Sequence record: OL960581 | Direction: 5' to 3' (one strand) | DNA from: Escherichia phage vB_EcoM_SA20RB | Length of the DNA stretch: 64,000 nucleotides | In this document: piece after piece, positions 3,149-22,709 of the stretch | Layout: the number at the start of each line of letters is the position of its first letter | Numbering within the stretch: the stretch's first letter is position 1 | Program-made: the position numbers and the translations under genes | The notes under the pieces: model-generated | Databases searched by the model: none | The model's input: only the letters and a program-made list of their open reading frames with translations | What the model was told of the DNA's origin: nothing

Positions 3149-4567
3149 TTATGGATAGGTATAGATGATACCAGTTTCTAAAGCAGTTTTATGAATGATG
3201 TATCCATTACGTGATTCTTGAACATCAACTTCTGGATAGTCTTTCATCATCTTCTGAAGAGTGTAACGATGCAAGTAGTATTTACTATCTGGATCTTCAG
3301 TTTTCCAATCTTTACCTTCTTCAGTCATTTTTTGGATTTCATCCATAACCCACCAACCGCACCAGATATAAGCTGAAGTACGATGTGGAAGAGGATGAAC
3401 ATAAGGTAATTCACCTTCTGGTTCCGGAGCAACTTTATCAGTTACCTGAACTTGACCTTCTGCTGTGATAGTTTTGCTATCATAATCAGTGGCAGTAACA
3501 GTTGCAGTAACTTCAATAGTTTGACTTCCAATAGATGATGTATCAACGGTGTATACATTAGTTGACCCTTCTACAGGAGAAGAATCTTTCTTCCATGAAT
3601 ACGTAATTTGTGCTTCTTCCGGAGCATCCGTAACATTAGCAGTAAATGTAGCCGAAGCATCTTGCTGAACATTAATAGAAGGAGGAGTCAATGTAACCTG
3701 TGGATTCATTGTCTTCTTATTAACTGTCAATGATACTTCATTAGAAGTAACTTCCTTTTCATTATAATTTTCTGCAGTTACTTGGGCTACGCATTTAATT
3801 CTTTTTACTCCACTTGTAGTTGGAGTATAGTTAAATGTAGAGTTAGTTTCTCCACCAACTTGTGAATCATCTACATACCACTGATACGTGGCAGACGCTC
3901 CATCAGGTTGAGAAGCTAAGGCAGCAGTAAATTGAACCGGGGTTCCAATTACTCCAGCAGCAGGACTAGCAGGAGTTACTGCCAAGGTAGTTGTCTGCGT
4001 CTTTTTATTAACAGTCAGTGACACTTCATTAGAAGTAACTTCCTTTGTATCATAATCTGCCGCGGTTACTTGAGCTACACACTTAATTGTTTTAACTCCG
4101 CTTGTGGAAGGAGTGTAATTGAATGTAGCAGAAGTTGCTTCGCCTACAGGAGAACCGTCAACGTACCATTGATACGTAGCAGTTGCGCCAGATGGCTGTG
4201 AAGCTAAGGCAGCAGTAAATTCAACGGCTGTTCCGATTACTCCTTCTGGAGGACTATTAGGAGTTACAGCTAAGGTAGTTGTTTGTGTCTTATTTTGAAC
4301 TGTGATAGTTATAGTAGCTTCTGCTGTTTCAGCATCAGTATCTGGAACTGGGTTTGTTGCAACTACTTTAATAGTTTTTTGACCGGCAGGTCCTTTTAGT
4401 ACATAACTAAAAGTTGCTTCAGTTCCATCTTGTGGAACATCGTCTACAGTCCAAGCATATGTAATAGGTCCATCTCCAGTTTGACCACTGGGTGTAGCAG
4501 TAAACTGCTGAGTCTGATCTATAACTCCAGTAGGTGTTTTAGGAGTTATATCAACTGTAAAAGCCAT
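3149..4567 (-). CDS. hoc: highly immunogenic outer capsid protein Hoc, with four Ig-like domains
   Basis: 472 aa; recognisable Hoc C-terminal capsid-binding region; two near-identical tandem 96-aa Ig-like modules; T4 Hoc as recalled is 376 aa. Confidence 0.9.
   Translation of the reverse strand: MAFTVDITPKTPTGVIDQTQQFTATPSGQTGDGPITYAWTVDDVPQDGTEATFSYVLKGPAGQKTIKVVATNPVPDTDAETAEATITITVQNKTQTTTLAVTPNSPPEGVIGTAVEFTAALASQPSGATATYQWYVDGSPVGEATSATFNYTPSTSGVKTIKCVAQVTAADYDTKEVTSNEVSLTVNKKTQTTTLAVTPASPAAGVIGTPVQFTAALASQPDGASATYQWYVDDSQVGGETNSTFNYTPTTSGVKRIKCVAQVTAENYNEKEVTSNEVSLTVNKKTMNPQVTLTPPSINVQQDASATFTANVTDAPEEAQITYSWKKDSSPVEGSTNVYTVDTSSIGSQTIEVTATVTATDYDSKTITAEGQVQVTDKVAPEPEGELPYVHPLPHRTSAYIWCGWWVMDEIQKMTEEGKDWKTEDPDSKYYLHRYTLQKMMKDYPEVDVQESRNGYIIHKTALETGIIYTYP
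3719..4294 (-). repeat. tandem duplication of a 288-bp Ig-like domain coding unit inside hoc
   Basis: Protein segments KKTQTTTLAVTPNSP...SNEVSLTVN and KKTQTTTLAVTPASP...SNEVSLTVN are about 85 percent identical; the DNA copies are visibly similar. Confidence 0.85.
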
Positions 4568-15345: not shown

Positions 15346-15349
15346 CAAT

Positions 15350-15378
15350 GGGGACCTTTCGGTCCCCATATTTTTATT
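15350..15378 (+). terminator. terminator hairpin GGGGACC-TTTC-GGTCCCC after gene 54
   Basis: 7-bp GC stem followed by ATATTTTTATTT. Confidence 0.7.
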
Positions 15379-15664
15379 TACGGAATGAAATAAAAGCAGC
15401 AACTGAAGCAACTAAACTGTCTTCAATATAAACTTCAATTTTTACCGGAGCTTCTGACTCAAATTTACCTGTTACTACACCTTGGAAAATGCTTTCAGTC
15501 TGTTCTGGCTTTGAAAAATTTTCAGAAGGAAAAATTCCGAACTTTTTATCTGTTCCAAAAATTTTGATAAATTCATCGTAAACCGCTTCATTAAAAGCAT
15601 TATCAGCAGGAATAACGCCTTCAACTACGAGTTCTTGACCTAAAAAGCGCAAAGAAGATTTCAT
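15374..15664 (-). CDS. hypothetical protein (alt-distal ORF)
   Basis: 96-aa ORF; SD AGGA; early promoter immediately upstream. Confidence 0.6.
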   Translation of the reverse strand: MKSSLRFLGQELVVEGVIPADNAFNEAVYDEFIKIFGTDKKFGIFPSENFSKPEQTESIFQGVVTGKFESEAPVKIEVYIEDSLVASVAAFISFRK

Positions 15665-15695
15665 TTTGTGTTCCTCATGTTATATCAGTAAGTCT

Positions 15696-15725
15696 ACTAT
15701 AACACAACATGAGGGACTTGTAAAC
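15696..15725 (-). promoter_or_regulatory. T4-type early promoter
   Basis: Minus strand reads GTTTACA, 17 nt, TATAGT. Confidence 0.6.
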
Positions 15726-17782
15726 TACATCTTGAACTTTTTAGACATTCCGTTGATGTTAACCAAAGAAGCTAAGATTTGAGAAACTTCGTTTTCCTCT
15801 TCTTTTGATTCTTCTACAAGGAATTGGTTAAATCCAGTCATTGGACGAACTTCACCAGTTTCCATCAGATGATCGCCATCATATACCGATTCTTCTAATT
15901 GTTCAGAAGGAGGAACGATTGTGCCTTCGATTAGATACTTGTTATAAGCAGTTTCTTTCATCATGTACGTGCTTACTTTATTAATCTTCAACAAAATTCC
16001 ACGCGGTAAAATAACTTCAGCTTCTGATGGAAATCCTGATAAATGACCTGGAACGATAACTTTAATTCGCTCAGCTCCTTTTATTACCATACCTACGCTA
16101 GTTTCAGCATCTTCATTAGCATATGCAGAATGACTACCCATATGCATTAAATCTTCAGCATCAACGGAACCTTCTCCTTCACCAGAAAATACTGCACCGG
16201 AATCATCTAGAGCCATATAGTTTTTACCATGCTCACCGAAGATATTTGGTTTAAGCGATGTTGATACGAAGTTCTTGAAATAGAACATTTTATTTTCAAT
16301 ATTATGACGTAAAGTTTTAAAGGTAACTTCTTGTCCACGGTAAAGTGTAGTTCCTGGAGGAAGAACTGATCCTTTGGCAAAGGCAGAATCCATTGTCTCG
16401 ATGTGTTTAATAGCTCGTTCCATGTATTCTTCACGGGTAGAATCTGGTTTACCCAAGAGGAACGAGTTCATTTCAACATATGAATCTGCACAATAATCTT
16501 CAATTACATCAGACTCAGCCTGAGTCAGTCCTTTTGGAGTTACTTCGGTGCTTGCGTATTCATATGCCTGAGCAGCAGATTCATTAATCAATTTATAAAT
16601 GCTATTCATGACAAATTGAATAATAGCTACTTTTTCGTCTGGCGTGGCTTTAGAACCTTTAACTAAATCATTGATAATTTTCTTAATAACATCAAAGCTA
16701 TTAGAAATATTAATGTCAGCGAGATCGCTTAAAATTTTATCAGTTTTATAATCAAAAAATTCTTTATTCTTTAAATATTCTTTAGAACCTTGATATGTTA
16801 TATCGCTCTGCAGCTTGATAGATGGATCACGTAAACGTGCATGGGCCAATGCAATATGATTTCGGAAGCTTTCTAGTTCATAATCGTTAGATTTAAAACG
16901 AGAAGCACTTCTCATACCACCGATAGCTCCTTTGCCGAAGTTTGAACCAATCTGAATAACACCAGAGTTCATTGGTCCTTCTGCTTTATATACCGGAACT
17001 TTAGATTCAAACTCTTGATATTTCTTGGCAGCGAAGCTATCACCCTGAAGTGAAGCATCGACAGTAGAATATTGAGCTTGTGCTGCTAATCGACGACTAA
17101 TTTTAGTTTTCTGAATAACAGCTTGATCCGTGCGCTTATCATTTTCTAAAGCAATAGAAGCAGCAACAGCAACAGCTTTAGGAACAGCATTACCTGTTTT
17201 AACATCTACATAAACATCACCAACCTTTGATTCAACTTTTGTGAATAACTCAGTTGAAATAGGAGGTACACCTGGAATGTCTTCTAAATTGGCATTTTTA
17301 CGGTAAACCATAATATATGCATACTTTTTATCATAATCCCAAATTTCCTTTAAAAGAACATATCGACCTGCTCCTTTAGTACGTACTAAACGGTCAGCAA
17401 TAACTTGCATTTGACGAGCAGCGCCATTTGTTTTACTTTTTAGTACGCGGAATAGGCATGCGTCAATTTTATACTGTTTCATTGTTTGAAGAGCAGTATC
17501 AAAAACCGCATTAATGACACCAATTGGATTTCCACCCAAGTTTTTAAGTTTAACGAGCGATAGTTTCTCATTGACACCTATCATTACGATATGCATCATT
17601 TTATCGCCTGGCTTAACGTTTTTATTTGTATCACCGCCAGAGGTGTATGTACAAAATCTAAATCCAGGAAGCACACTTTCTTCGCCGGCTTGAATAGCAA
17701 AAATTTGAGGTATTTTATGCTTAGGATTTAAGTTAACAACCGGCGCCGAAGCGCCGTCAAATAATTCTGTAATAAGTTCCAT
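15725..17782 (-). CDS. Alt-family ADP-ribosyltransferase paralogue (possibly the ORF called alt.-2 in T4-type genomes)
   Basis: 685 aa; N-terminus MELITELFD... shared with the adjacent Alt; C-terminal region with an R...STS...E ART-like signature. Confidence 0.8.
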   Translation of the reverse strand: MELITELFDGASAPVVNLNPKHKIPQIFAIQAGEESVLPGFRFCTYTSGGDTNKNVKPGDKMMHIVMIGVNEKLSLVKLKNLGGNPIGVINAVFDTALQTMKQYKIDACLFRVLKSKTNGAARQMQVIADRLVRTKGAGRYVLLKEIWDYDKKYAYIMVYRKNANLEDIPGVPPISTELFTKVESKVGDVYVDVKTGNAVPKAVAVAASIALENDKRTDQAVIQKTKISRRLAAQAQYSTVDASLQGDSFAAKKYQEFESKVPVYKAEGPMNSGVIQIGSNFGKGAIGGMRSASRFKSNDYELESFRNHIALAHARLRDPSIKLQSDITYQGSKEYLKNKEFFDYKTDKILSDLADINISNSFDVIKKIINDLVKGSKATPDEKVAIIQFVMNSIYKLINESAAQAYEYASTEVTPKGLTQAESDVIEDYCADSYVEMNSFLLGKPDSTREEYMERAIKHIETMDSAFAKGSVLPPGTTLYRGQEVTFKTLRHNIENKMFYFKNFVSTSLKPNIFGEHGKNYMALDDSGAVFSGEGEGSVDAEDLMHMGSHSAYANEDAETSVGMVIKGAERIKVIVPGHLSGFPSEAEVILPRGILLKINKVSTYMMKETAYNKYLIEGTIVPPSEQLEESVYDGDHLMETGEVRPMTGFNQFLVEESKEEENEVSQILASLVNINGMSKKFKM

Positions 17783-17785
17783 GAT

Positions 17786-19882
17786 TTATCCTTGAACGAA
17801 CTTGTAAGGCATGTTTGCAATATCTATGCAAGATGCAATAATTCCAAGAGATGATTCTACTTTTTGTTTAACATTTGATGAAACAAATGATGCAAAGTCA
17901 ACTCTGTCTTCTATTTCAATATCACCTGTCATTGCAACTACTTCACCAGTTTCCATTAGACGGTCACCGTCATAAATTACTGATTCGGTGAGTTCTTCCG
18001 TAGTCATAACTTCAGCTTGAATGAGTTTTGTATTATTAGATGTTGTTCCGTCATTATTAGAAGCATCAGTTATTTTATTAACTTTGACCATCAATCCGCG
18101 TGGTAGAATTACTTCAGCTTCTGTTGCTATTCCTAGACTTCCTGGATATACAACATTAACTTTATGAGCTCCATCAATTGCCCATCCTATTTGAACTTTA
18201 ACGTATTCAGGATTTTCTTTATACGCTCTTATTTCGTTTGGATTAATAGTTATTCCTTCTTCATTTTTATCAACTGTCAATTCATTACGAGCTTCTGGTT
18301 CTAAAAGACCAATACCAGCATGTGTAATTCCAAAACGTCCAAAAATGATAGGAGTTAAAGAAGTAGATACAAAATTTCTGAAATAGAACACTTTATTTTT
18401 AACTAGTGCTTCGTATATAGGAGCAGTCATGCTTTGAGCACGATAAACTGTAATGCCTTCTGGTATACGATCACCATTTTCAAAAGCTGAATCTAAGTTA
18501 TTTATAGCAGATTCAATTTCTTTTTCACTCATTACATCATATCGTTCTGGATTGTAACGACCCAAAAGAAGATTATTGATGTCAGTATATCCTGAACCAC
18601 AATACTCTCTAATGCCGCGCTTTTGTGATGGAGTATATTTAGAACCATCACGGGCAATAGTAATATCAATCATTGGACCTGCACCAATTCCAGAAAAGCT
18701 ATAAATCATTCTTTTAAGGAATTTAGTTTTTGCTGCGTTCCAGGAATTTTTAGTTATTTCTTCCCAGACTTCATCTGGCTGCCCTTTACGAGTTTTATTA
18801 TGTTTATCAAGCCAATTATCTTTATATTCTTCAAAGAATTGATTAACAGCTGCTGCGTATTTCTCTAAACATTTTATTGAAGTAGTTGGTTCATTTTTAA
18901 TCGCATTAAGAATTACATCTTTAATTTTTTCAGAAACTTCATTAACCTCACTTTTTGAAAAGAATTTATAATCATAGTGAAGTTCATTTGCAGTTCCTTC
19001 AGCAATAATTTTTGCTGTCTTTGTTTTAGAAGCTAATGAATTAATTCCAAGCTTCATTTCTTCTGCTTCGGGAATTAAAGGAGCGGTAGCAGGTTTATTG
19101 AAATTAGCTGCGGTAGATTCATACTTCTGGAATAATTCACTTTCAAATCTAGAAGATTCTAATGATTGACTTTGCGCAATTGCTCTACGGGAAATTTTAA
19201 CTTTAACGATTACAGCTTGGTCAGAACGTTTATCATTTTCTTGCGCAATAGATGCAGCAATTGCCTCATTTTTAGTTACTTGAGCTCCAGTATCTTTATT
19301 GATATAAACATCACCAACCTTCGATTCAACTTTAGTAAAGAGCTCGGTACTAATTTCCGGAACTCCTGGAATGTCTTCTAGTGATACATTTTTGCGATGT
19401 ATAAGAATATATGCATACTTTTTATCGTAATCCCAAAGTTCCTTAAGAAGGACGTATCTGCCGCCTGAGCGACTACGGATAAGTCTATCAGCAATAAGTT
19501 GAATTTGACGAGCTTGACCAGCAGTTTTAGACTTAAGAATACGGAGCATGCAGGCATCAATTTTATACTGACGCATCGTCTGCATCGCAACAGTAAAAAC
19601 TGAATTGATGTAATTAATTGGGCTTGGACCGAGACCTTTTAATTTAGCAATTGAACCTTTAGCAGTTAATGTAAAAGGAACAATATGCATCATTTTATCG
19701 CCCATTTTTAAATCGCGATTAGTATCACCTCCAGATGTATAGGTACATAAACGAAAGCCTGGTTGTTCAATTGCGTCATCAACATGAACTGAAAAAATTT
19801 GCGGTATTTTCTTCTTTGGATTTAAGTTTGTAATCGGAAGAGTAGTATCTTCGTCAAATAATTCTGTAATGAGTTCCATCAT
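17786..19882 (-). CDS. alt: Alt ADP-ribosyltransferase (packaged head protein)
   Basis: 698-aa ORF (697 if the second Met is used); adjacent to gene 30 as in T4; late promoter upstream. Confidence 0.85.
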   Translation of the reverse strand: MMELITELFDEDTTLPITNLNPKKKIPQIFSVHVDDAIEQPGFRLCTYTSGGDTNRDLKMGDKMMHIVPFTLTAKGSIAKLKGLGPSPINYINSVFTVAMQTMRQYKIDACMLRILKSKTAGQARQIQLIADRLIRSRSGGRYVLLKELWDYDKKYAYILIHRKNVSLEDIPGVPEISTELFTKVESKVGDVYINKDTGAQVTKNEAIAASIAQENDKRSDQAVIVKVKISRRAIAQSQSLESSRFESELFQKYESTAANFNKPATAPLIPEAEEMKLGINSLASKTKTAKIIAEGTANELHYDYKFFSKSEVNEVSEKIKDVILNAIKNEPTTSIKCLEKYAAAVNQFFEEYKDNWLDKHNKTRKGQPDEVWEEITKNSWNAAKTKFLKRMIYSFSGIGAGPMIDITIARDGSKYTPSQKRGIREYCGSGYTDINNLLLGRYNPERYDVMSEKEIESAINNLDSAFENGDRIPEGITVYRAQSMTAPIYEALVKNKVFYFRNFVSTSLTPIIFGRFGITHAGIGLLEPEARNELTVDKNEEGITINPNEIRAYKENPEYVKVQIGWAIDGAHKVNVVYPGSLGIATEAEVILPRGLMVKVNKITDASNNDGTTSNNTKLIQAEVMTTEELTESVIYDGDRLMETGEVVAMTGDIEIEDRVDFASFVSSNVKQKVESSLGIIASCIDIANMPYKFVQG

Positions 19883-19902
19883 ATCCTCTCTAGTGTTTAT
19901 TC

Positions 19903-19910
19903 TATTTATA
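19903..19910 (-). promoter_or_regulatory. late promoter TATAAATA for alt
   Basis: Exact TATAAATA on the minus strand about 20 nt upstream of the alt ATG. Confidence 0.6.
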
Positions 19911-19931
19911 AAATTAAAGGCCCGAAGGCCT

Positions 19932-20120
19932 TTAATAATCTATTGGTAAGAGAGTACGATATATTTCAAACTTTGGACCTTTTTCGTAGGCATCAAATGT
20001 TTCTGTAAATTTATTATAAGCATATGCATCTATAAATTCAATCATAATTTGTGATACAGAAGTAGAAACATCTCCACCTTCTTTTTGAGCAACGACAATT
20101 GTTTCTAAGTAAGCTTTCAT
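19932..20120 (-). CDS. hypothetical protein
   Basis: 62-aa ORF whose start overlaps the gene 30 stop. Confidence 0.5.
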   Translation of the reverse strand: MKAYLETIVVAQKEGGDVSTSVSQIMIEFIDAYAYNKFTETFDAYEKGPKFEIYRTLLPIDY

Positions 20121-21580: not shown

Positions 21581-21846
21581 TGTTCATCCTTCAGAGTTTG
21601 ATTTACAGCTCTATTATAAATCAATTCATCATTAAGCTCAGGCAAAGACTTATGATATGTAGTTCTAACTTTATTTCCTTGCATCCAGTGCTTGACATAA
21701 ATGAAACCTTGCTCTACACATTTTTTAAAAATTCGTTCGTCTTTTTGAGCTCGGAATTCTGGATTGCATCTAAAAAATTGATTTACGTGACCGTAATCAC
21801 GTGTAGTATTACCTTCATTTTCATAAATAGTGTGAACGACAAACAT
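21577..21846 (-). CDS. hypothetical protein (30.1 position)
   Basis: 89-aa ORF overlapping its neighbours by 4 nt. Confidence 0.55.
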   Translation of the reverse strand: MFVVHTIYENEGNTTRDYGHVNQFFRCNPEFRAQKDERIFKKCVEQGFIYVKHWMQGNKVRTTYHKSLPELNDELIYNRAVNQTLKDEQ

Positions 21847-22709
21847 TAGAATGCTCCTTGGAAAATATTATCACCACTAGTAAATCTATTAAAATACCCT
21901 GCATCGCCAGGCTTGGTATAACTCCACGTATGGAATGGATTCATATGATATGGGTGTGTATAATATGGATTATATGGATGTGTATAATATGGATTATACG
22001 GATTAAATCCAGGAGTTCTCCAGGTAGTGTTCCAACGAAAAGAATCGTTTTTAACCATCTTCTCAATTACATCTTTTATAGCTTTTTCACTATCAAAACT
22101 TTCTTTATTTTCCTTTGGTGAAAAAAGCTTATTTTCTATATCATTCCATGTATAAACTCGCTGTGCAGTTTTTGGAATTTTATCACGCTCTCCTCGAGCC
22201 ATCCAATAAACCGGAACATTTAATATTTCACTCGCATGGTCGCAGTGGTGAGCGAGATCGTCAATATAACAAATTACGTTATATTTCTCTTTTGCCTTTT
22301 TGAATAACTCTTCTTTTGAAGAATCATGACCACACATCATTACTTCTGAGAAGGCACCAGGAAAAAGAGCATTCAAATTAAATTGACGATTCAACAGAGC
22401 GTCAATAGAATCACCCAATGCTGTAACAGCTACAAAATTATAATCTTCTTTTAATTTGTTAATTACACACAGGGCATCTTTATACGGAGACAAATAACGA
22501 ATAAAATCTGAACGATTGTATTTTTCAATTAACTTGACACCAAGTTCTTCATCACAATTAAAGAGTTTACCTGGAGAAATAAATTTCTCATCTTGGATCA
22601 TTTTTAAAATATGTTCTAACGGAAGATTATATTTCTGAGCAAAATAAGGAAGGCCTGATTGCCAGCTTAAACATACTCCATCAATATCAGTCAAAATAGT
22701 TGGCTTCAT
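21846..22709 (-). CDS. HAD-like hydrolase with a C-terminal Pro/Tyr-rich repeat (30.2 position)
   Basis: 287 aa; N-terminal DIDGV motif typical of HAD phosphatases; C-terminal NPYNPYYTHPYNPYYTHPY. Confidence 0.65.
   Translation of the reverse strand: MKPTILTDIDGVCLSWQSGLPYFAQKYNLPLEHILKMIQDEKFISPGKLFNCDEELGVKLIEKYNRSDFIRYLSPYKDALCVINKLKEDYNFVAVTALGDSIDALLNRQFNLNALFPGAFSEVMMCGHDSSKEELFKKAKEKYNVICYIDDLAHHCDHASEILNVPVYWMARGERDKIPKTAQRVYTWNDIENKLFSPKENKESFDSEKAIKDVIEKMVKNDSFRWNTTWRTPGFNPYNPYYTHPYNPYYTHPYHMNPFHTWSYTKPGDAGYFNRFTSGDNIFQGAF
21955..22002 (-). repeat. 24-bp tandem repeat (2 copies) encoding NPYYTHPY
   Basis: TGTGTATAATATGGATTATA recurs with a 24-bp period. Confidence 0.7.

Follow-up and report, generated by a model that had tools for sequence, protein, structure and literature searches.

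Two adjacent Alt-like genes beside DNA ligase

The 64,000-nucleotide stretch of Escherichia phage vB_EcoM_SA20RB analysed here (record OL960581; hereafter the window) comes from a T4-like phage (Tequatrovirus) and carries, beside the DNA ligase gene, two neighbouring genes related to T4 alt. An earlier note on its sequence had described them as adjacent open reading frames of 685 and 698 amino acids encoding ADP-ribosyltransferases (ARTs), and this is the arrangement that we found: both lie on the minus strand, 3 nt apart. We refer to the copy adjoining alt.1 and ligase as altB (17786-19882) and to the second copy, a second full-length Alt paralog of 685 residues, as altA (15725-17782). Positions are those of the window, and features lie on the minus strand unless stated otherwise.

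The altB reading frame opens with a double start, ATGATG (19877-19882), which T4 alt shares; it encodes 698 residues from the first ATG (19882) and 697 from the second (19879). The T4 RefSeq and Ge15 annotations use the second ATG, and our altB residue numbers follow this 697-residue form. By analogy with T4 Alt, which loses its first 6-7 residues, the choice of start should hardly matter for the product; the double start does produce off-by-one residue numbers between papers (ITE-6 and LTE-619 as against E577).

The order of genes on the minus strand is alt.-3, altA, altB, alt.1, DNA ligase (gene 30) and 30.1, matching T4, and the plus-strand neighbours gp29, gp48 and gp54 are likewise arranged as in T4. 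With Shigella phage KRT47, IME339, Shfl2, ime09 and numerous further phages, the 4.9 kb around the pair shares 98% identity; a nucleotide search with this region matched 543 phage records, and in 376 of them coverage of the query reaches 80% or more.

The two proteins are 41% identical overall (BLASTP, E 2e-162), a similarity well beyond what chance would give, and this identity is distributed very unevenly. Both begin with MELITELFD, and identity in 40-column blocks is 55-75% over residues 1-238 (about 67% for this part as a whole), falls to 12-20% over residues 240-440, and then stands at 30-45% in the ART domain (30-42% across its catalytic core) and 20-50% in the tail. These values agree with the conserved first ~220 residues and diverged middle pointed out in the earlier note, and the ART-like C-terminal domain that it recognized is likewise present in both copies, with YRGQ or YRAQ, FVSTSL and E-A-E-VILPRG. 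The conserved N-terminal domain (residues 1-238, including the motif ITE-6) is encoded at 17069-17782 in altA, where the E6 codon is 17765-17767, and at 19166-19879 in altB, whose version is 99% identical to that of T4 Alt.

Catalytic residues and predicted fold of the Alt family

Profile searches placed both proteins in the same family. Against a gathering cutoff of 23.4 bits, Pfam PF03496 (ADPrib_exo_Tox) matched altA with 73 bits (E 2.7e-20) and altB with 129.7 bits (E 1.1e-37). PHROG 802, 'Alt-like RNA polymerase ADP-ribosyltransferase', matched them with E 3e-255 and 6e-272, respectively, its 674-position profile running end to end over altA 1-685 and altB 1-696. The Alt-family architecture of N-domain, middle, ART domain and C-terminal tail is thus complete in both copies, and precomputed annotation of homologs gives the Pfam pair PF26846 and PF03496. 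An NCBIfam scan of four proteins returned no family for any of them.

The ART catalytic domain of altA, delimited by Pfam, motifs and fold, spans residues 416-620 (15923-16537), and that of altB, delimited by Pfam, motifs and alignment, lies at 17999-18748. Within altA we located R482 (16337-16339), S507-T-S509 (S507 at 16262-16264) and E587-A-E589 (16016-16024); the altB counterparts are R480 (18440-18442), S505-T-S507 (S505 at 18365-18367) and E587-A-E589 (18113-18121). Alignment with T4 Alt, ModA and ModB revealed that neither copy lacks the catalytic R-S-E residues: the Arg of Y-R-G/A/S, the first Ser of S-T-S and both Glu of E-x-E are invariant across all five proteins, and the R, S-T-S and E-x-E residues are invariant also in the 22 homologs (42-90% identical to altA) that we aligned. 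The second Glu of E-x-E aligns with the residue mutated in T4 Alt E577A (E576 when counted from the second ATG) and ModA E165A (the second Glu of EQE), substitutions that abolish activity (PMC11404850).

An AlphaFold2 model of altA built with the 22 homologs has a mean predicted local distance difference test score (pLDDT) of 74, rising to 85.5 in the N-domain, with residues 1-9 disordered. Foldseek matched the modelled ART domain to Vis, Certhrax, C3bot/C3 exoenzymes, CDTa, iota-like toxins and VIP2 (E 1e-5 to 1e-7), at template modelling scores (TM-scores) of up to 0.67, normalised to target length, and sequence identities of 13-22%; the best structural match was Vis toxin with agmatine (4xzk). 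A sequence search of solved structures with altA gave no match at E <= 0.01. Judged by profiles, by alignment with T4 Alt, ModA and ModB, as well as, for altA, by the modelled fold, both proteins are, as the earlier note had it, Alt-family ARTs, and they belong to the R-S-E (C3/VIP2/Alt) clade.

A HMMER search over 1.84 billion representative proteins yielded only 114 clusters with E <= 0.001, of which 57 reached E <= 1e-30. Most of the family members matched are 600-710 residues long, and many match as two stretches, N-domain and ART, between which the middle cannot be aligned. By these matches, the Alt family is narrow, with a variable centre. A few database proteins (P0200, P0218, P0220 and P0226) match only the Alt N-domain, over query residues ~10-167, and a Pfam scan of these four found no domains; they may represent the N-domain fused to other cargo.

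Both copies retain prohead-protease processing motifs

Mass spectrometry of T4 heads showed that the protease gp21 cuts Alt after ITE-6 and LTE-619, the latter cut removing 63 C-terminal residues (PMC5694885; review PMC9026906). The earlier note had taken the shared N-terminus to be the region processed upon capsid packaging, which fits T4 cleavage at ITE-6 (PMC5694885) and the presence of this motif in both copies. Both proteins have, in addition, an LxE motif near residue 631 at the aligned position: in altA it ends at E631 (Q-L-E-E|S, codon 15890-15892), which aligns with LTE-619 of T4 Alt, and in altB at E632 (L-T-E|S, codon 17984-17986), which is identical to the T4 site. E6 and E631 of altA are invariant in the 22 homologs. 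Moreover, the low-confidence ends of the altA model (residues 1-10 and 630-685) coincide with both propeptides of T4 Alt; altA residues 632-685 form a putative C-terminal propeptide. Taken together, the processing motifs and the flexible ends support, short of proof, an altA product that is packaged and processed like Alt.

Beyond the C-terminal site, the remainder of each protein (altA residues 632-685, 15728-15889; altB residues 633-697, 17789-17983) carries a block, Y-D-G-D-x-L-M-E-T-G-E, in which Y, D, G, D, E, G and E are invariant in the 22 homologs. Because this invariant block falls in a part that is removed from T4 Alt, its conservation suggests that the C-terminal propeptide has a role of its own, for example in binding the core or in holding the enzyme inactive before maturation.

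A late promoter precedes altB, and altA probably shares its transcript

The late promoter that the earlier note placed before the ligase-side gene is an exact T4-type TATAAATA (19903-19910). Read on the minus strand, from 19910 to 19903, it lies 13 nt upstream of the altB ribosome-binding site GAGAGG (19885-19890), which is followed by the ATGATG start and is annotated at the equivalent place in Ge15. The promoter occupies the same place in T4, T2, AR1, RB9, phiD1, OE5505 and Ge15, that is, in all eight phages compared, the window included. Directly upstream of it is a terminator-like GC-rich hairpin, AAAGGCC-TTCG-GGCCTTT with a T run (19916-19933), which overlaps the alt.1 stop codon and whose equivalent is annotated as a terminator in phages Ge15 and OE5505.

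At the junction between the two genes (17783-17793), an AAGGA ribosome-binding site within the end of altB is followed by the TAA stop, the 3-nt spacer and the altA ATG, and Ge15 has an annotated ribosome-binding site here as well. On the minus strand of the window, neither promoter nor terminator was found between altB and altA; the sole terminator-like site on this strand downstream of the altB late promoter is a hairpin at 15348-15369, past alt.-3. Since the genes are 3 nt apart with no terminator between them, the simplest reading is that altA is probably co-transcribed with altB.

A second exact TATAAATA occurs inside altB (18499-18506, minus strand), 717 nt upstream of altA, where it encodes A-I-N-N. 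It is found in Ge15, T2 and phiD1, is lost from RB9 through a synonymous change, and is absent from T4-type altB alleles; overall, the window contains 11 occurrences of the motif against 9.3 expected, which is chance level. Given the loss in RB9, the absence from T4-type alleles and the chance-level count, we consider it unlikely that this site is a separate late promoter for altA. With low confidence, we regard it as probably a coincidence of coding.

altA is widespread, under purifying selection, and largely deleted in T4

At least 401 phage records, T2, RB9, RB33, AR1 and phiD1 among them, cover 80% or more of the 1338 nt specific to altA, and the two-gene arrangement is usually annotated as "Alt-like RNA polymerase ADP-ribosyltransferase" twice over in deposited relatives, many of them RefSeq records. 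The two-copy arrangement is therefore the common Tequatrovirus state, and T4 belongs to the minority. In all seven phages compared (window, Ge15, T2, AR1, RB9, phiD1 and OE5505), the altA reading frame is uninterrupted. Pairwise Nei-Gojobori estimates among these seven gave ratios of nonsynonymous to synonymous substitution rates (dN/dS) of 0.036 in the N-domain, 0.068 in the middle, 0.030 in the ART domain and 0.036 in the tail, at a mean dS of ~0.18. altA is under strong purifying selection in every part, the poorly conserved middle included, and these ratios together with the intact frames led us to reject the possibility that it is a decaying pseudogene.

The position of altA, between alt and alt.-3, is taken in T4 by the small genes alt.-1 and alt.-2 (NP_049810 and NP_049809). 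Their products are near-identical to altA residues 1-55 and 62-117, and PHROGs 23015 and 15247 match altA at residues 1-56 and 62-117, where they align. Comparison of the DNA gave two alignment blocks between T4 and the window. In one, which takes in the end of altB and about the first 350 nt of altA, identity is 96%, and T4 lacks one base of an A run, so that the frame is split. The other resumes only with the last 20 nt of altA and extends into alt.-3, with 95% identity. These blocks overlap by 9 nt, CTAAAAAGT, a direct repeat present at both ends in the window (upstream copy 17435-17443, downstream copy 15736-15744) and once in T4 (positions 4105-4113 of T4 locus L001). From this overlap it follows that T4 lost 1691 bp of altA by deletion between the 9-bp repeats. 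The T4 annotation calls alt.-1 and alt.-2 "an old duplication of the first part of gene alt"; contrary to this, the alignments show them to be what is left of a full-length paralog after truncation. In 91 phage records, a 101-nt probe that spans the T4 junction is covered over its whole length.

T2-type and T4-type alleles of altB

Among the eight phages, altB falls into two classes: a T2-type of 697 residues (window, T2, RB9, phiD1 and Ge15) and a T4-type of 682-685 residues (T4, AR1 and OE5505). Between classes, the N-domain is 99% identical, the middle 31%, the ART domain 62% and the tail 91-94%. The divergent part forms a cassette (17905-19190) that is strongly unlike T4 alt and is flanked by DNA of 97-100% identity: in sliding windows, identity to T4 drops from 0.97 to ~0.4 within ~60 nt near 19160-19190, and climbs back between ~18115 and 17905, reaching 0.98 by ~17905. 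The sharpness of the left breakpoint (~19160-19190) suggests replacement of the cassette by recombination in the conserved flanks.

Within each altB class, selection is purifying; in the T2-type, the ART domain has a dN/dS of 0.014 and the middle one of 0.107. AR1 and OE5505 combine an intact altA with a T4-type altB, which indicates that the presence of altA and the type of altB allele assort independently. In the part presumed to recognise substrates, the altB of the window differs from the biochemically characterised T4 Alt.

Neighbouring features

The gene that follows altA, a homolog of alt.-3 (15374-15664, 96 residues, DUF5498), is the last before the convergent gp54, from which it is separated by the bidirectional terminator-like hairpin at 15348-15369. 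We treat it as a neighbour only and claim no functional tie to the Alt pair. The 60-nt spacer between altA and alt.-3 (15665-15724, minus strand), whose sequence is conserved in T4 as well, contains a sigma-70 or T4-early-like promoter match (15724 to 15696) consisting of TTTACA, 17 nt and TATAGT, with TG upstream. The same spacer contains a strong hairpin (free energy -24.7 kcal/mol, z -4.45) whose 3' arm pairs with the alt.-3 ribosome-binding site, GAGG. With this promoter match and this pairing, alt.-3 may have its own promoter and structure-controlled translation. Farther along the minus strand, a 30.2-like open reading frame (21846-22709) has a C-terminal part with the short tandem peptide repeat NPYNPYYTHPYNPYYTHPY.

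Discussion

We think it likely that the locus encodes two functional, paralogous mono-ADP-ribosyltransferases of the Alt type, built on one plan, made late, packaged and injected, and probably differing in substrates. The gene structure, the homology, the intact catalytic and cleavage motifs, the purifying selection and the promoter sequence are matters of observation. To these our proposal adds co-transcription, the packaging and injection of altA, enzymatic activity and a difference in targets.

On the shared plan, each protein would consist of an N-terminal propeptide ending at ITE-6, an N-domain of ~230 residues, a variable helical middle, a C3/VIP2-like R-S-ExE catalytic domain and a propeptide following the LxE motif. 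Late in infection, a single transcript from the TATAAATA promoter at 19903-19910 would cover altB and then altA, the latter being translated from its own ribosome-binding site 3 nt past the altB stop. Both proteins would be processed at both ends, remain inside the head and, when the next cell is infected, be injected along with the DNA; in the cell, they would use NAD+ to ADP-ribosylate arginines of host proteins before any phage gene is expressed. The N-domain and propeptides would serve assembly, and the variable middle and ART domain would set the substrates. With only 12-45% identity between the two proteins in the middle and ART regions, altA and altB most likely recognise different sets of host substrates.

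Several points weigh against this proposal. The TATAAATA inside altB (18499-18506) could give altA a separate transcript. Divergence of the middle is no proof of different substrates, T4 Alt itself being promiscuous, and the altA dN/dS values come from seven closely related genomes only. Deletion has removed altA from T4 and 90 further records, so the gene is dispensable at least on laboratory hosts. Finally, the searchable literature yields no virion proteomics, activity assay or mutant phenotype for altA: as to what the second copy does, what it is called or whether it has been detected in virions, we found only a passing note by Nolan et al. (2006), who observed alt paralogs adjoining alt in several T4-like phages and, like the T4 annotation, treated alt.-1/alt.-2 as a duplication of alt (PMC1524935).

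In our estimation, it is unlikely that altA is instead a redundant duplicate heading for loss, one that supplies a second dose of the same activity and has no distinct role. T4 and about 90 other records do hold only a frameshifted altA remnant missing 1691 bp and are fully viable, and T4 alt itself is non-essential (PMC9026906). However, at least 401 records hold a full-length altA, whose dN/dS of ~0.04 at a dS of ~0.18 would be unexpected for a gene drifting to loss; being only 41% identical to altB, it does not form with it a pair of simple dosage copies.

We also find it quite unlikely that altA is made late and left unpackaged, acting in the cell that produces it or serving as a structural or scaffold-associated protein with secondary ART activity. 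Our literature searches gave no direct evidence of altA packaging, as this possibility would have it, yet the conserved gene context agrees with the late synthesis and head packaging of T4 Alt (PMC5512222). altA furthermore keeps the whole Alt N-domain, both gp21 cleavage motifs at aligned positions and all catalytic residues.

Classically, T4 Alt and the C3, VIP2, iota and CDTa toxins count as protein ARTs with specificity for arginine or asparagine. With these as the closest relatives, with the E-x-E motif in place and with no sequence feature pointing specifically to another substrate, it is highly improbable that either enzyme or both have nucleic acids or small molecules as their main substrates, or attach NAD-capped RNA, instead of ADP-ribosylating RNA polymerase, even though ModB, also of the R-S-E clade, transfers NAD-capped RNA to proteins (10.1101/2021.06.04.446905) and Vis toxin, the best match to the altA ART domain, was solved with the small molecule agmatine (4xzk).

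Returning to two packaged enzymes, we offer a broader and distinctly more tentative extension: the T-even alt locus might be a two-slot, cassette-polymorphic arsenal of injected enzymes, each cargo with its own set of host proteins. The near-invariant N-terminal domain, as a head-targeting module, and the conserved C-terminal propeptide may act as recombination flanks between which the cargo of middle and ART domain is exchanged or lost, with altA, T2-type altB and T4-type altB as three such types. The N-terminal fold, moreover, seems to be joined to unrelated effector domains in other myoviruses and so may be a general delivery module. Targets of the cargo could possibly include defence toxins, by analogy with MazF, which T4 Alt modifies and inactivates (PMC10286901). 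If this extension is true, decades of work on T4 cover one of three natural Alt enzymes, and T4 is a natural altA knock-out.

The pair itself is already known, being annotated in public records and mentioned in the literature, and the value of our annotation is routine, as many deposited relatives already have both genes rightly labelled as Alt-like ARTs. In T4, a functional altA is lacking and the altB allele is unlike that of most relatives, T2 included; knowledge of "Alt" thus describes a single one of at least three natural enzymes that would reach the cell as infection begins. If their substrates differ, the copies might play a part in host range or in overcoming host defences. What residual interest the locus holds lies in the function of altA, the T2-type as against the T4-type altB cassette, and the reconstruction of how T4 lost altA, none of which would surprise a T4 specialist.

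Comparison with known systems

Besides the alpha subunit, T4 Alt has other RNA polymerase subunits and proteins of translation and metabolism among its substrates. It is present in ~40 copies per head, is injected with the DNA, ADP-ribosylates Arg265 of one RNA polymerase alpha subunit along with many other proteins, and boosts some early promoters about two-fold (PMC2988021; PMC9026906). altB is the positional ortholog of T4 alt. T4 Alt (NP_049811) and altB are alike in their slot, late promoter, ITE-6 and LTE motifs and R-S-ExE residues; altB is 15 residues longer, and the two are 99% identical over residues 1-238, 92% in the tail, 62% in the ART domain and 31% in the middle. altA has the full architecture in common with T4 Alt at 41-43% identity. 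Because the middle and ART regions of both window enzymes differ from those of T4 Alt, Arg265 of the alpha subunit cannot be assumed to be a target of altA or altB.

T4 is without a functional altA paralog, its alt.-1 and alt.-2 being fragments where altA is intact. The altA of the window joins a group of orthologs that is already deposited. These orthologs (for example T2 T2_202, RB9 'alt.-2', AR1_201, phiD1 g200 and Ge15 WZE64511) are 94-100% identical to it per region, equal in length and position, and without substantive difference.

ModA and ModB of T4 belong to the same R-S-ExE clade as altA and altB, with R, S, E and E aligned; their identity to altA over the aligned segment of the ART region is 17-20%. 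They are, however, single-domain proteins of ~200 residues, made early from a different locus and not packaged, and they lack the N-domain, the middle and the propeptides. The C3-like and binary toxins (Vis, Certhrax, C3bot, CDTa, iota-like toxins and VIP2) share the catalytic fold and motif set of altA, yet these are secreted bacterial toxins that follow a different route of delivery, whereas Alt is a protein of the phage head.

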